NCBI GenBank assembly: GCA_963666055.2
Contig: CAXWPH010000015.1
Coordinates: 736,001-800,000 of the forward strand
Reading direction: 5' to 3'
DNA length: 64,000 nucleotides
Source of the DNA: Acidobacteriota bacterium
GTDB lineage: Bacteria; Acidobacteriota; UBA890; WLXD01
A program made the position numbers and the translations under genes. Positions within the stretch are counted from its first letter, which is position 1. Each line of letters opens with the position of its first letter. Under the pieces are notes generated by a model. The model ran no database searches and was not told the origin of the DNA. It was given only the letters and a program-made list of their open reading frames with translations. Of this stretch, positions 10,792 through 15,888 are shown in pieces.

Positions 10792-11355
10792 TCACGAATC
10801 AACCGTCTGCGGGTAGTCGATGCTGACGATCTCGAGCACCGCATCGTCCCGCGGCAGGTGCGCCACCACCTCGTCTCCGGCGCGCGCCGAAAGCAGCGCC
10901 TTGGCAAGAGGCGATACCCAGCTGATACGGCCTTCCGACGCATCAGCCTCGTCGACGCCGACGATAGTGTACACACGCTCTTCGCCCGCCGCGTCCATCA
11001 CGGTGACGGTGGCGCCGAAACGCGCCCGGTCGCCATCCTGCTGCGCCGGGTCGATCACCTCGAAGCCGGCCACCCGCTCGCCGAGCCAGCGGATCTGCTC
11101 GTCGAGCTCGCGCAACCGATGCTGATCGGCGCGATGCTCCGCCTCCTCCTGTCGACCCGCCTCCACTCGACGCGACAACTCCGCAGCTAGCCGGGGACGT
11201 TCCACCTCAGCGAGCATCGCGAGCTCCTGCCGCAGGCGACGAGCACCCGATGGAGTGATGTAGTTCCTGACGCCAGCAGGCAGCACGTTGCGAGGTCGAA
11301 CCGAGACCTCGAGCCCGGGATCGAAGTCCGATTCCTTGGTGAACGCCTTGTTCAT
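10792..11355 (-). CDS. GreA/GreB family transcription elongation factor
   Basis: MNKAFTKESD...NYITPSG, FGATVTV, IVGVDEAD and ISWVSPLAKALL. Confidence 0.9.
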   Translation of the reverse strand: MNKAFTKESDFDPGLEVSVRPRNVLPAGVRNYITPSGARRLRQELAMLAEVERPRLAAELSRRVEAGRQEEAEHRADQHRLRELDEQIRWLGERVAGFEVIDPAQQDGDRARFGATVTVMDAAGEERVYTIVGVDEADASEGRISWVSPLAKALLSARAGDEVVAHLPRDDAVLEIVSIDYPQTVDS

Positions 11356-11661
11356 AGAGAAAGGATTGTAACCCACTGAAACGCTGTGACTTATGGACTC
11401 CAGGCAACCACAGGTTGCCCAGAAAAGCGCACCAGAGCGCCTTCTTGTTGCCCTACAACCGAGGGGCAACCAGTTGAGCGTGCCCCGCGCAGATCACCCG
11501 ATTGATCGATGAAGGTGTTGCGCGGTCGGCTTACGACGAAAACGGGGCGAAAATACAGGCGGAAACGAGCCTACACAGTGGTGGGCGAACCGTCCAGATG
11601 CGGACTAGTCCCGTCAGCATCAGCAGTTACGCGACGCGGCCTTGGTTTCCAGACTACTCCG

Positions 11662-12267
11662 TTACTGCGTCGCCAGCTGCAGCCGCTCGATGACCTCAGC
11701 GACCGGCGGGCGCAGGCGGTAATTGGTCTCGACAAACAGGTACCGGACGATGCCGTCAACGTCGAGAATAACCACAGCCGGGTGCGGTATCAGGCTGTCG
11801 CTGTCAGCTTCGTTGAGCAGGCCCCATGCTTTGATGGCCTCGGCGTCAGGATCGAGCAGGAAGGGGAACTCGAAACCCTCCTCCTCACGATAGGCCCGCA
11901 GCTTGTCGGTGTCGTCGTTGGCAATGGCCCAAAACTCGGCCCCGGTAGCCCGGATCTCGTCTATGGCTTCATGCAGCTGCACGAGCTGCTCGCGGCAGAA
12001 CGGTCACCATGTACCCCGGAAGAAAAGCAACATCAGCGGCCGCTCGCCGCGGGCCGCCGCCAGGTCATAGACGTCACCGTCAGTGGATTCGAGCGAGAAC
12101 GTCGAGGGCGGCAACTGGCCGAGCTCGAGCAGGGTCTCGTGCGGCAGCCCGGGCGCCAGTCGATCGGCATCCTGGGCGTAGGCAGCGGCTGGCCACACGA
12201 CGGCAAACAAGAGCGGCATCGCCAGACGCGCCCATGACAGCGTTGGCAACGAGAAGCGACCTTTCAC
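11662..12267 (-). CDS. Selenocysteine-containing peroxiredoxin-like (AhpC/TSA) redoxin with signal peptide; TGA at 12004-12006 read as Sec
   Basis: The two listed ORFs are in frame: LLFFRGTW-TGA-PFCREQLVQLHE gives a UxxC motif. A GGAGG RBS precedes GTG12267. Confidence 0.88.
11968..12003 (-). promoter_or_regulatory. Putative bacterial SECIS hairpin
   Basis: After the UGA come 14 nt, then stem GCAGCU / loop CGUGC / AGCUGC. The loop starts 20 nt from the UGA and has G at position 2. Confidence 0.65.
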
Positions 12268-12397
12268 CGGACCTCCGTGAGGTTGGATGTTGCTAACGCG
12301 CCTCGGCCGACCGGGTCGGTGACGGACGTTACAGGCAACACCGGAACAGCGTGCGCCCTGATGCGCTCGAGCCGGGATCGAGATCGTAACACCGAGT

Positions 12398-12426: not shown

Positions 12427-12618
12427 ACGATCGGAGCCGCCGTACAGCCGCTAACAGCTACCGTGGAGAGCACGACCTCATGTCGACGCCGGCTGGACCG
12501 GTCGTTACCGGTGCCTTCGGCGCCACCTCTCGTCGCGGTAGCTGGTGGCGCCTGCCACTGCTGACCTTTCTGGGCCTCGGCGCGAGACCCGTTGGCAGTA
12601 CCGGGAGCAACTAAACCC

Positions 12619-14397
12619 ATGAGCGTACGGCACGACGTGGTGATCGTCGGTGGAGGTGGTGCGGGGCTGCGGGCGGCGATCGCCATCGCCGAGATCAACC
12701 CCTCCCTGAGCGTTGCGCTGGTAAGCAAAGTCTACCCGATGCGCAGCCACACGGTGGCAGCTGAGGGCGGTGCCGCGGCAGTGATCAAAGACAACGACAG
12801 CCTTGAAGATCATTTCCGAGACACCGTCGGCGGCAGTGACTGGTTGGCCGATCAGGACGCGGTCGAGCTGTTTGTCAACGAAGCGCCGGCCGAGTTGATC
12901 CAGCTCGAGCACTGGGGCTGTCCGTGGAGCCGAGAACCGGACGGCACGGTTGCAGTGCGGCCATTCGGAGGCATGAAGATCGAACGGACATGGTTTGCCT
13001 CCGACAAGACCGGCTTCCACATGTTGCACGCGCTGTATCAGACGTCTCTCAAGTACAGCCCGATTGCCAGTTATGACGAGTCGTTCGCGACCAAGATCTT
13101 GGTGGAGGACGGACGTTGCCAGGGCGTCAGTGCGCTCGATCTACAGACCGGCCGGGTCGAGACGATTATTGCCAATGCTGTCATCCTCTGCACCGGCGGG
13201 GCCGGGAGGGTATTCCCATTCACAACCAACGGGGCGATCAAGACCGGCGACGGGATGGCGATGGCCTACCGCGCCGGAGTCGCCCTCAAGGACATGGAGT
13301 TCATCCAGTACCACCCGACCGGGCTGCCCGGAACCGGCATTCTCATCACCGAGGCTTCACGGGGCGAAGGAGGCATCCTCGTCAACAAGGACGGCTACCG
13401 GTACTTGCAGGACTACGATCTGGGAACGCCACTGCAGGTCACCGACCCCGAGCACCCGGTCAAGAAGAGTATGGAGCTGGGTCCTCGCGACCGACTCAGC
13501 CAGGCGTTCGTCAAGGAATTGGAACAAGGTCGGACGATACCCGGGCCGCACGGAGATGTCGTCCATCTCGACATACGACACCTCGGCGAGAAGAAAATCG
13601 ACAAGAAGCTGCCTTTCGTGCGCGAGCTAGCTAGGAACTACGCCCGCATCGACCCGGTATACGAGCCCATTCCCGTGCGCCCCGTCATTCACTACATCAT
13701 GGGCGGTGTCGACACCGATACCGACGGCGCCACATCGCTTCCGGGATTGTTCGCGGCGGGCGAGGTCGCCTGCGTGTCGATCAACGGGGCAAATCGGCTT
13801 GGCTCCAACTCTCTGACCGAACTCCTCGTCTTCGGCGCGCGTGCCGGACGGGCGGCGGCTATCTTCGCAGCCCAGAACCCGAACCCTGACGTCGAGGCGG
13901 TGGAGAAGCAAGGCGCCGACGAGCAAGAGCGCATCGCCCGGGACTTCATTCGCAAGGAGGGCGGTACGGAGAGGATCGCTACCCTCCGCAGAGAGATGAA
14001 CGAGACGATGGAAAGCGGCGCCGGCATCTACCGTTCCGAACAGGGCCTCAGCGAGACGTGTGACACGCTGATGGAATTGAGGCAACGCTTCTCGAATCTC
14101 TTGATCGAAGACCGAAGCCTGACCTTCAATACCGAGCTCACCTCCGCTCTCGAGCTCGACTTCATGCTCGACGTGGCGCTCACCATCGGTCGCAGTGCCC
14201 TGGCACGGACCGAAAGTCGCGGCTCCCACCAGCGCACCGATCACCCCGATCGTGACGACGAGAACTTTCTCAAACACTCGCTTGCGTTCCGCACCGACGA
14301 CGGGCTTCGCACCGACTACAAGGATGTCGTCATCACCAAGTGGCCACCCGAGGAACGTGTGTACGGTAGACAGACGTCGAGAGCGGACACGCACTGA
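12619..14397 (+). CDS. frdA: Fumarate reductase/succinate dehydrogenase flavoprotein subunit
   Basis: [16 protein letters not shown] (covalent FAD histidine), [21 protein letters not shown] and ESRGSH. Confidence 0.95.
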
Positions 14398-14399
14398 CG

Positions 14400-15152
14400 A
14401 TGGGGGAGACGATGGAGCTCGAGATCTTCCGGTACCTCCCTGAGCAGGACTCCGCGCCCACTTTCCAGACTTACGAGGTTCCGTTTCACGGAGAGTGGGT
14501 CGTTCTCGATGCCATCAACTACATCAAAGAGGAGATCGACGGCACGCTCTCGTACCGCTGGTCGTGTCGGATGGGCGTGTGCGGAAGCTGTGGAATGATG
14601 GTAAACGGCGTGCCGAAGCTCACCTGCGCGGTCTTTCTGAAGGACTACTATCCCGGCAAGATCCGTGTCGAACCTCTCGACGGCTTCCCGGTCGAGCGGG
14701 ACCTCATTTTCGGCATGGATGACTTCATCGAGAAGCTGAAGAGCGTCAAGCCGTGGATCATCCGTAAGGAAGGTGAGGAGAAGCCGATCGAGGAAGGCGA
14801 ATACCTACAAACCCCACGCCAGCTTGTTGAGTACATGCCGTACTCGATGTGCATCAACTGCATGCTTTGTTACGCGGCGTGCCCCGTCTACGCGATCGAC
14901 ACCACGTTCTTGGGACCGGCGGCGATCGCCCTGGGCCAACGCTACAACATGGATTCACGCGATCAGGGGAGAGATCAGCGGCAAGAGGTGATCGCCAGCC
15001 ACGAAGGGATTTGGCAGTGCACCTTCGTCGGTGAGTGTAGCGCCGTGTGTCCCAAGGATGTCGATCCGGCAGGCGCGATCCAGCGCGCCAAGGTCGCCAG
15101 CACGATCGATTACTTCAAGGAACTGCTTTTGCCCTGGGGCAAGAAGAATTGA
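14400..15152 (+). CDS. frdB: Fumarate reductase iron-sulfur subunit
   Basis: Cluster motifs [22 protein letters not shown] and [12 protein letters not shown]. Confidence 0.95.
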
Positions 15153-15529
15153 GCTATCAGCGACGAGTTCCGAATACCTGGTGGCTCAAGCGGTGGCCCT
15201 ACTTCCTGTTCATGGTTCGGGAGCTCACCAGCCTCGGCGTTGCCGGCTACAGCGTGTTCCTTCTGTTTCTGGTTTATCGACTCGGTCAAGGGCGCGAGGC
15301 CTACGAGGCGGCGATCGGCCTGATCATGTCGCCGACCAGCATCGCGCTGCATTCGGTCGCGCTGGTGCTCGCCGTCTACCACACGGTCACTTGGTTCAAT
15401 GTGACTCCCAAGGTCATCGTGATTCACTTTGGCGAGGAGCGTATTCCCGGCTTCATGATCGCCGGCGCTCACTACGCCGGATGGCTCGCGGTGTCGATGA
15501 TCGTCGCGTGGGCCGTGCTGGGAGGGTAA
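15149..15529 (+). CDS. frdC: Fumarate reductase membrane anchor subunit C
   Basis: The TTG start overlaps the frdB stop. [10 protein letters not shown]...FMVRELTS and [11 protein letters not shown]; 3 TM helices. Confidence 0.88.
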
Positions 15530-15534
15530 TCACC

Positions 15535-15888
15535 ATGGCCAAGTCCAACGAACCAATTCCCTGGTCACTGTTCTCGGCCGGTGGGATGTTGTCGGCAATG
15601 CTGCTGCCTATCCTCGTCGTCATCACCGGAATTCTGGTGCCCTTCGGCTTTGCGCCGCTGGAGTCCCTCGGCTTCGACAAAGCGCACGCCGCCGTTTCGG
15701 GCAACCTCCTGGTAAAGCTGATTCTGTTCGGACTGATCTCTCTGTCGCTCTTCCACTGGGCACACCGGTTCAGGTTCGCGCTCGTCGACATGGGCCTGCA
15801 GAAGATCAAAGGGCTGATCGGCTTTGCCTGCTACGGCAGCGCCCTTTCCGGCGCCGTAATCACCGCCGCGCTTCTCTGGCGGATCTAG
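15535..15888 (+). CDS. frdD: Fumarate reductase membrane anchor subunit D
   Basis: SNEPIPWSLFSAGGM and LFHWAHR. Confidence 0.9.
   Translation: MAKSNEPIPWSLFSAGGMLSAMLLPILVVITGILVPFGFAPLESLGFDKAHAAVSGNLLVKLILFGLISLSLFHWAHRFRFALVDMGLQKIKGLIGFACYGSALSGAVITAALLWRI

Follow-up and report, generated by a model that had tools for sequence, protein, structure and literature searches.

The window analysed here, a stretch of 64,000 nucleotides from an Acidobacteriota genome, carries on its minus strand a gene that runs in one frame from a GTG start codon at position 12267 to a TAA end codon, with one in-frame TGA located within FFRGTW-TGA-PFC (Table 1). Gene calling with translation table 11 splits this gene into two ORFs, at positions 12004-12267 (87 aa) and 11662-11982 (106 aa). 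On the read-through protein, the Pfam AhpC-TSA domain (PF00578) was matched over residues 56-176 (E 6e-25, 88 bits vs a cut-off of 26), and both this match and that of the Redoxin domain (78.3 bits) extend across the TGA, which is codon 88. The first-pass annotation had placed the TGA exactly at the first Cys of the redoxin CxxC motif in a continuous frame, and this placement is borne out, the resulting motif being U88-P-F-C91. Despite its apparent break at the TGA, the gene very likely codes for an intact redox protein that contains selenium. Protein databases carry the C-terminal halves of relatives as proteins of their own (P0002, P0003 (114 aa) and P0118 (104 aa, 84% identical)), and a homolog search with the single sequence returned three proteins only, two of them C-terminal halves. 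Reading the gene as a single unit corrects the annotation of a clade, present in 20 of the 25 genomes of the order searched, that split calls leave in the databases as fragments without an active site.

Table 1. Features at the selenoprotein locus and their positions in the window.
Feature	Position	Strand	Remarks
Full coding sequence, predicted selenoprotein	11662..12267	-	201 codons + TAA, one frame, single internal TGA
Shine-Dalgarno-like GGAGG	12272..12276	-	4 nt before GTG; kept in 5/5 genus members
Predicted signal peptide, residues 1-31	12175..12267	-	Ends A-Y-A before Gln32; based on hydropathy
Predicted Sec88, first position of UxxC	12004..12006	-	TGA in 22/22 close relatives; Cys in 117/120 homologs
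Cys91, second position of UxxC	11995..11997	-	Invariant 22/22; aligns with the peroxidatic Cys of BCP/PrxQ (2cx3)
Candidate bacterial SECIS upper stem-loop	11973..11989	-	6 bp, 5-nt loop CGUGC (11983-11979), loop 20 nt after UGA
Pro163 of the PHP motif, at the place of the peroxiredoxin catalytic Arg	11779..11781	-	Invariant 22/22 and 120/120
GreA/GreB-family gene, downstream	10792..11469	-	PF01272/PF03449
frdABCD, divergent neighbour, not part of the element	12592..15888	+	TIGR01176 over cut-off, PRK12385, PF02300, PF02313

The integrity of the sequence was assessed in contigs of other sequencing runs. Contigs of runs X3 and X4, either of which is possibly the source of this DNA itself, spanned the whole stretch without a single difference. 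In run X8, the contigs of a related strain showed 31 differences over the stretch, none of them at positions 12004-12006. A TGC or TGT at these positions would have spoken against selenocysteine (Sec), and no variant was present there in the contigs of the three runs; the TGA is therefore not an assembly error. Within the codons of the gene, the X8 strain showed 12 non-synonymous vs 8 synonymous changes, one of them at the nearly invariant Phe83, and contig error and relaxed selection are indistinguishable here as sources of this excess.

The genome (5.73 Mb, 95.7% complete) encodes the machinery for Sec decoding, as the first-pass annotation had supposed. Genes selA (533.6 bits, cut-off 267.9), selB (367.5 bits, cut-off 242.25) and selD (326.6 bits, cut-off 125) were all detected, the SelD sequence forming the end of a 758-codon frame and having Cys in place of Sec, and ARAGORN identified two tRNA-Sec genes with UCA anticodon, on contigs C13 and C6. 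A search of 40 relatives, in which a match was an E value of 4e-29 or better, found the gene in 22 of them, distributed as 9 of 10 genomes of the same family, 11 of 15 sister-family genomes and 2 of the 15 other members of the phylum. Among genomes of the same order, orthologs were present in 20 of 25, and the five without a match are 55-90% complete. Column 88 held TGA in every one of the 22 close relatives, down to about 40% identity, and selA was detected in 21 of the 22 ortholog-bearing genomes, the exception being 69% complete. By contrast with this all-TGA group, the column was occupied by Cys in 117, by Trp in 2 and was missing in 1 of 120 database homologs (27-38% identical, save for one 84% fragment).

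The protein is constrained on both sides of the TGA. In the four comparisons made within the genus, dN/dS was 0.06-0.34 for codons 32-87, before the TGA, and 0.09-0.16 for codons 100-154, after it, values that place the codons beyond the TGA under purifying selection. A tree was built from 62 rows, corresponding to the 22 Sec rows and the 40 top-ranking single-domain homologs; 78 homologs of lower rank, two two-domain proteins and one fragment were left out. In this unrooted tree, 20 Sec rows formed one supported side (97/89), and the two Sec rows from other families fell outside it; having no root, the tree is compatible with change in either direction, Cys to Sec or Sec to Cys. The two homologs with Trp at the Sec column, P0010 and P0020, grouped with the TGA-bearing locus L045, and they may come from selenoprotein genes whose UGA was rendered as Trp in translation.

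Downstream of the TGA, the first-pass annotation had pointed to the hairpin GCAGCU-CGUGC-AGCUGC with its loop 20 nt from the UGA, which we located at positions 11989-11973. According to PMC13188914, bacterial SECIS elements have a loop of 3-9 nt, a stem of 4-16 bp and a G in the first two loop positions, lie 16-37 nt from the UGA and show an MFE of -7.5 kcal/mol or lower. Compared with these values, the hairpin, with its 5-nt loop, 6 bp, G at the second position, distance of 20 nt and MFE of -7.5 kcal/mol, falls within every published limit. The 60-nt window around it has an MFE of -15.4 kcal/mol and is unpaired in the centroid fold. In three windows compared with shuffled sequences, the hairpin was not unusually stable (z +0.87, -0.20 and +0.90), and these non-significant scores led us to drop stability as evidence for a SECIS element. 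A loose genome-wide hairpin filter gave no enrichment behind TGA (40/171 for TGA, 45/244 for TAG and 3/50 for TAA); a stricter filter was passed by 32 of 1753 TGA vs 30 of 3315 TAG/TAA sites, and, having been tuned after the loose-filter result, it is not independent of this site.

The comparative data were more informative. In 28 TGA-bearing rows (23 close and 5 distant), 93.5% of the 168 stem cells were paired, and in 5 cells changes had occurred on both sides of the stem. None of 500 shuffles scored as high, a count that overstates the case because the relatives are kin and not independent, and slid controls were 10-50% paired. Codon usage in the stem-loop was also skewed. CAA at Gln94 occurred only in two of the 23 close rows, exactly those with TTG at Leu98, so that the silent changes kept the pair; Leu95 was CTC or CTA in all 23 rows (CTG in 0 of 23 vs 41% genome-wide), and the Gly of the loop was GGT in 11 of 17 rows vs 18% genome-wide. 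Values of dS for codons 89-99 were 0, 0, 0.15 and 0.34, vs 0.15, 0.59, 0.91 and 0.77 downstream. Loops starting with CGUG were found at 18-24 nt in other candidate genes of the same genome, among them unrelated candidates with loops CGUGC, CGUGU and CGUGA at 18-21 nt, and short matches from other contigs pile up mostly on the 38 nt at 11972-12009. The palindrome is partly expected from the protein and from codon bias, because Q-L-x-x-L is conserved in the Cys homologs too. The compensatory changes, the codon skew and the low dS are evidence for selection acting on the RNA of the stem-loop. Altogether, the strong part of the case for Sec is comparative, and the hairpin by itself is weak evidence.

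Export of the protein had been proposed from an N-terminal signal peptide, and the N-terminal region agrees with this proposal. The GTG start is kept in 5 of 5 genus members, as is the A-x-A before Gln32, and an alternative ATG start (Met17) is missing in the other four. The leader has no twin-arginine motif; residues 15-32 form an 18-residue stretch without charge, the hydrophobic core is short, and the Kyte-Doolittle maximum over 11 residues is 2.33. With the N-termini and starts of relatives set by eye, hydropathy values of at least 2.0 were found in 21 of 22 aligned N-termini vs 8.3% of 3000 random open stretches, and a hydrophobic N-terminus was present in 95 of 117 motif-bearing database homologs. 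The leader sequence is poorly conserved, and some relatives lack a clear AxA site. Export to the cell envelope is thus likely for the window protein, and, because hydrophobic N-termini recur through both sets of relatives, it would be a trait of the whole subfamily, the Cys forms included.

The AlphaFold model of the protein (mean pLDDT 90.5, pTM 0.81) resembles BCP/AhpE peroxiredoxins and ResA-type reductases to about the same degree, its fold neighbours including 3hjp (E 3e-13, TM 0.90 by target length) and 4nmu (E 2e-12), and the best PDB profile match was 2cx3 (E 1.7e-25). The peroxiredoxin catalytic Arg precedes a late beta-strand. In the alignment with 2cx3, the Pro of the peroxiredoxin active site is replaced by Arg84, the Thr/Ser by Sec88 and the catalytic Arg by Pro163, and the peroxidatic Cys corresponds to Cys91. 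The peroxiredoxin pattern P-x3-T/S-x2-C...R thus reads R-x3-U-x2-C...P in the window protein, which contains neither the PxxxT/SxxC nor the PxxxTxxU peroxiredoxin motif (P-x3-S-x2-C in 2cx3). At the place of the catalytic Arg of peroxiredoxins proper, the invariant Pro163 aligns with the Arg of 2cx3, 2ywn and 1xvw, and it is likely the cis-Pro of the thioredoxin fold. Arg84 and Arg186 are invariant in the 22 close relatives, His162 is nearly so, and Arg186 is found in all 120 database homologs. As judged from the sequence, in which Pro stands for the catalytic Arg, the protein is not a true peroxiredoxin; the designation peroxiredoxin-like in the first-pass annotation is adequate as a family label, and the catalytic triad that it might suggest is missing.

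A nucleophile at the first position of the motif, together with a Pro of this kind, is the layout of thiol-disulfide oxidoreductases (thioredoxin-family chemistry), and for this reason we favour a periplasmic reductase. We consider it probable, by a modest degree, that the gene produces one 201-residue selenoprotein, predicted to be periplasmic, that uses its UxxC motif for thiol-disulfide oxidoreductase activity. The starting point of the proposed sequence of events is observed: a single frame with TGA at the catalytic column, in a genome with selA, selB, selD and tRNA-Sec. SelB would almost certainly bind the stem-loop that lies 20 nt downstream and deliver Sec-tRNA to the UGA. The 31-residue leader would then, very probably, direct the chain to the general secretory pathway and be cut after A-Y-A, and the mature chain is predicted to adopt a thioredoxin fold of BCP/ResA type in which Sec88 starts the active-site helix. 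It is fairly probable, taking the remaining steps jointly and by analogy with thioredoxin-family chemistry, that the selenolate would attack the oxidised sulfur of an envelope protein (a disulfide, sulfenic acid or persulfide), that Cys91 would resolve the intermediate to give a selenenylsulfide, and that a membrane protein of DsbD/CcdA type would re-reduce it. The presence of ResA-type proteins among the fold neighbours and of one DsbD transmembrane domain in the genome is in favour of the reductase. Against it, BCP/AhpE peroxiredoxins, and not ResA, come out closest by sequence and by fold, the invariant Arg84 and Arg186 and the nearly invariant His162 are unexplained by a plain ResA mechanism, and no partner gene is kept adjacent.

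Three other explanations were weighed against this reading. That the TGA is a true stop (in a pseudogene or a split gene), an assembly error, or a codon for Trp or Gly under a reassigned code is highly improbable, and the comparative data have already largely refuted it. Such an explanation could draw on the separate annotation of the two halves by gene callers, on the W found at this column in 2 of 120 homolog records and on a frameshift in another gene of the assembly (fdhA). It is opposed by the retention of TGA at the exact column in all 22 relatives, by purifying selection on both sides of it and by the same TGA in contigs of other runs. Genome-wide reassignment of UGA is ruled out: TGA is a usual stop codon here, ending 740 of 1398 open frames of at least 500 codons and also closing frdA and frdB, all 23 rows have TGG for the neighbouring Trp, and both tRNAs with UCA anticodon are tRNA-Sec by ARAGORN. 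An improbable variant, although less so, is that the selenoprotein is real and is not released to the periplasm, either because the leader remains as an uncleaved anchor or because translation starts later and the product is cytoplasmic. The AlphaFold model, which predicts a single helix of low confidence for residues 12-36, would agree with such a variant, as would the unclear AxA site of some relatives, cleavage being predicted from the leader sequence. Retention of GTG, GGAGG and A-x-A-Q across the genus, and the 18-residue charge-free stretch with its short hydrophobic core, argue against it, and even an uncleaved anchor would probably leave the domain outside.

A rather unlikely, but more serious, alternative keeps the same exported selenoprotein and makes it a non-canonical periplasmic peroxidase, in which Sec88 would directly reduce H2O2, organic hydroperoxides or peroxynitrite, Arg84, His162 and Arg186 would replace the peroxiredoxin Arg, and Cys91 would resolve. 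The top PDB matches by profile and by fold are indeed BCP/PrxQ/AhpE proteins (2cx3 and 3hjp with the scores given above), and the conservation of the two Arg residues and of His162 would find an explanation in this chemistry. The host also encodes a protein resembling heme-copper oxidase subunit I (586.9 bits, below the CtaD model cut-off of 670.75), and a Crp/Fnr-type regulator lies just upstream in sister-family loci. On the other hand, none of the peroxiredoxin residues Pro, Thr/Ser and Arg is retained, and Sec stands at the thioredoxin-type first position, whereas Sec-containing peroxiredoxins are listed as TxxU (PMC13188914 Table 1).

Several characterised groups can be compared with the reductase favoured here. 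A Prx-like thiol:disulfide oxidoreductase family with PF00578 and UxxC or UxxU (representative WP_010940744.1) has for years been catalogued as "predicted with high confidence" (PMC13188914 Table 1) and is absent from the list of experimentally verified families; its early record comprises 8 members in early genomes (PMC1794560 Table 1), and 225 members of 'Prx-like 1' were reported in ocean metagenomes (PMC2398784 Table 2). The window protein shares with this family PF00578, UxxC, Cys homologs and a downstream bacterial SECIS, and it likely belongs to it, an assignment made by domain and motif. Its subfamily is set apart, by description, by its own leader peptide and its PHP...Y-x-x-RP signature; in the passages of PMC13188914 consulted, neither 'signal peptide' nor 'periplasm' is mentioned for the Prx-like family. 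BCP/PrxQ and AhpE peroxiredoxins (2cx3, 2ywn, 3hjp, 1xvw) are the closest solved sequences and folds, with Cys91 at the peroxidatic Cys, and the window protein differs from them in having Arg84 for Pro, Sec88 for Thr/Ser, Pro163 for Arg and a leader, at 20-28% identity. With ResA/TlpA/DsbE proteins (4nmu, 1st9) it shares a close fold, a W-C-x-x-C-type motif and the cis-Pro place, and its hydrophobic leader may give it the extracytoplasmic targeting of that group; unlike them, it has Sec for the first Cys, and no cytochrome c maturation genes were noticed adjacent to it. No NCBIfam model reached its cut-off on the window protein: scores were 35.5 bits (cut-off 170) for ResA, 20.8 (359) for DsbE and 16.3 (230) for a further model of the ResA/TlpA/DsbE group, and the best match, the SelL-related redox protein NF040769 (E 2.8e-14), gave 53.2 bits vs a cut-off of 120 and covered residues 56-151 only. 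The gene adds a new member to a bacterial selenoprotein family that has been catalogued before, and the finding is real and well supported.

Export of selenoproteins is not new, since MccSep of the MccSep/ExtKL system is located in the periplasm with its leader cleaved (bioRxiv 10.1101/2025.11.18.688581); SaoX and SaoC have been described as lipoproteins (bioRxiv 10.1101/2022.07.06.499078). Signal peptide and Sec are common to these proteins and to the window protein, whereas their folds and functions are unrelated and their hosts anaerobic. Searches of the open literature found no paper that combines 'Thermoanaerobaculia' with 'selenocysteine' and none on this redoxin subfamily, and family sequence files in supplements could already list this very subfamily. 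A lone gene of this kind will not surprise a selenoprotein specialist. The exported Sec form and its widespread Cys counterparts do provide a workable pair for studying the benefit of Sec in an oxidising compartment.

The gene is transcribed divergently from frdABCD in the window, as noted in the first-pass annotation, and this arrangement is not conserved. It was found in two genomes only, the window genome and G002; G003 and G004 have the gene downstream of frdB, on the same strand, and the G001 contig ends upstream. Outside the genus, no frdA or frdB was present within the fetched flanks (about 1.5 kb, 3 kb for some loci). The divergence is for these reasons probably incidental, and a functional link to fumarate reductase is not supported. 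The frd operon of the window is itself a four-subunit fumarate reductase operon of the E. coli type, with FrdC and FrdD as anchors, here in a member of the Acidobacteriota. The GreA/GreB-family gene adjoins the selenoprotein gene in four of the five genus loci, and none of the other loci has it there. A promoter scan gave 0 sigma-70 sites, and a terminator scan gave two terminator-like matches, both inside the gene (shuffle mean 0.9). In the sister family, a similar ORF, read by eye, lies just upstream on the same strand in 8 of 11 loci; the two that were scanned (L033:2147-2977 and L042:470-1249) are Crp/Fnr-type regulators, and similar upstream ORFs occur in L034, L036-L038, L040 and L041. 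In several sister-family loci the ortholog precedes a large exported protein that had no Pfam match in the part scanned.

The selenoproteome of the genome was surveyed with two hairpin/TGA scans and the search of relatives, from which 23 other TGA candidates were picked by eye. For 21 of them, a Pfam or NCBIfam family matched across the TGA: AhpD-like, DUF3179 (4), FdhA, rhodanese (2), TlpA/ResA-like (4), deiodinase-like, SelW-like, DsrE-like, PrdB-like, Prx-like (3), OsmC-like and arsenite methyltransferase. Of the remaining two, neither of which had a family match, one is a two-TGA MerB-like protein and the other is the unsupported candidate C6:334089. The genome would thus contain about 24 selenoprotein genes (loci L070-L093) when the gene studied here and a further DsrE-like copy are added, a rough count, as the scans miss short and C-terminal Sec sites and some pairs are possibly assembly duplicates. 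With the window gene, Prx-like selenoprotein genes number four, one of which (L087) is fused to a DsbD N-terminal domain, and roughly a dozen candidates have, by eye, leader- or lipoprotein-like N-termini. This number is rich but no record, published maxima being 57-63 (PMC13188914), and it marks a selenoprotein-rich Acidobacteriota lineage when compared with the 4 selenoproteins in total counted earlier for the phylum (PMC1794560) and the 3 of one Acidobacteriota test genome (PMC12013277).

Candidates with export signals include TlpA-like, DUF3179, rhodanese, deiodinase-like and two-Sec MerB-like proteins. A wider proposal, which we regard as tentative and rather doubtful, places the window gene, conserved and always with Sec, at the core of an envelope redox network based on selenium, in an order of Acidobacteriota that respires oxygen; in this proposal, the subfamily defined by R-x3-U-x2-C, PHP and Y-x-x-R may use an undescribed arginine-assisted active site. 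If true, such a network would run counter to the view that aerobes rarely keep selenoproteins.

The MerB-like gene (G000:C14:448198-449055, plus strand; L078/L095) encodes 286 aa, including a leader peptide; its frame contains two TGAs, and a hairpin with a UGGUCA loop follows each of them. Both TGAs are kept in three relatives (L096-L098, 68-73% identity), and matches were found in 5 of 26 genomes of the order. The protein had no Pfam or NCBIfam match at the thresholds used and matched MerB2 (5c17) weakly (E 0.043), with both TGAs aligned with Cys. The catalogued MerB-like protein SaoL carries a single Sec, which belongs to a CU motif (PMC13188914; bioRxiv 10.1101/2022.07.06.499078). The exported two-Sec MerB-like protein may represent an unlisted selenoprotein family, and it is probably more interesting than the window redoxin. 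The formate dehydrogenase-N alpha gene at L072 (G000:C3, about 78394-79554, minus strand) has a Sec TGA and a Tat-like leader, with a frame change about 170 codons after the TGA that corresponds to an assembly indel or a broken copy.

A putative tRNA-Pyl (CUA anticodon; ARAGORN) at C5:65608-65685 on the minus strand was rejected: PylS scored 23.2 bits vs a cut-off of 178, and the tRNA, with two G.A mismatches in the anticodon stem, looks like a degenerate ordinary tRNA. Finally, near-identical duplicates were observed for tRNA-Sec (C6:7932-8029 and C13:66090-66187), for the DsrE-like selenoprotein (C14:289437 and C15:433226) and for a Lys-Glu-Thr tRNA cluster (C7 and C10), which suggest either real duplication or strain mixing in the assembly.
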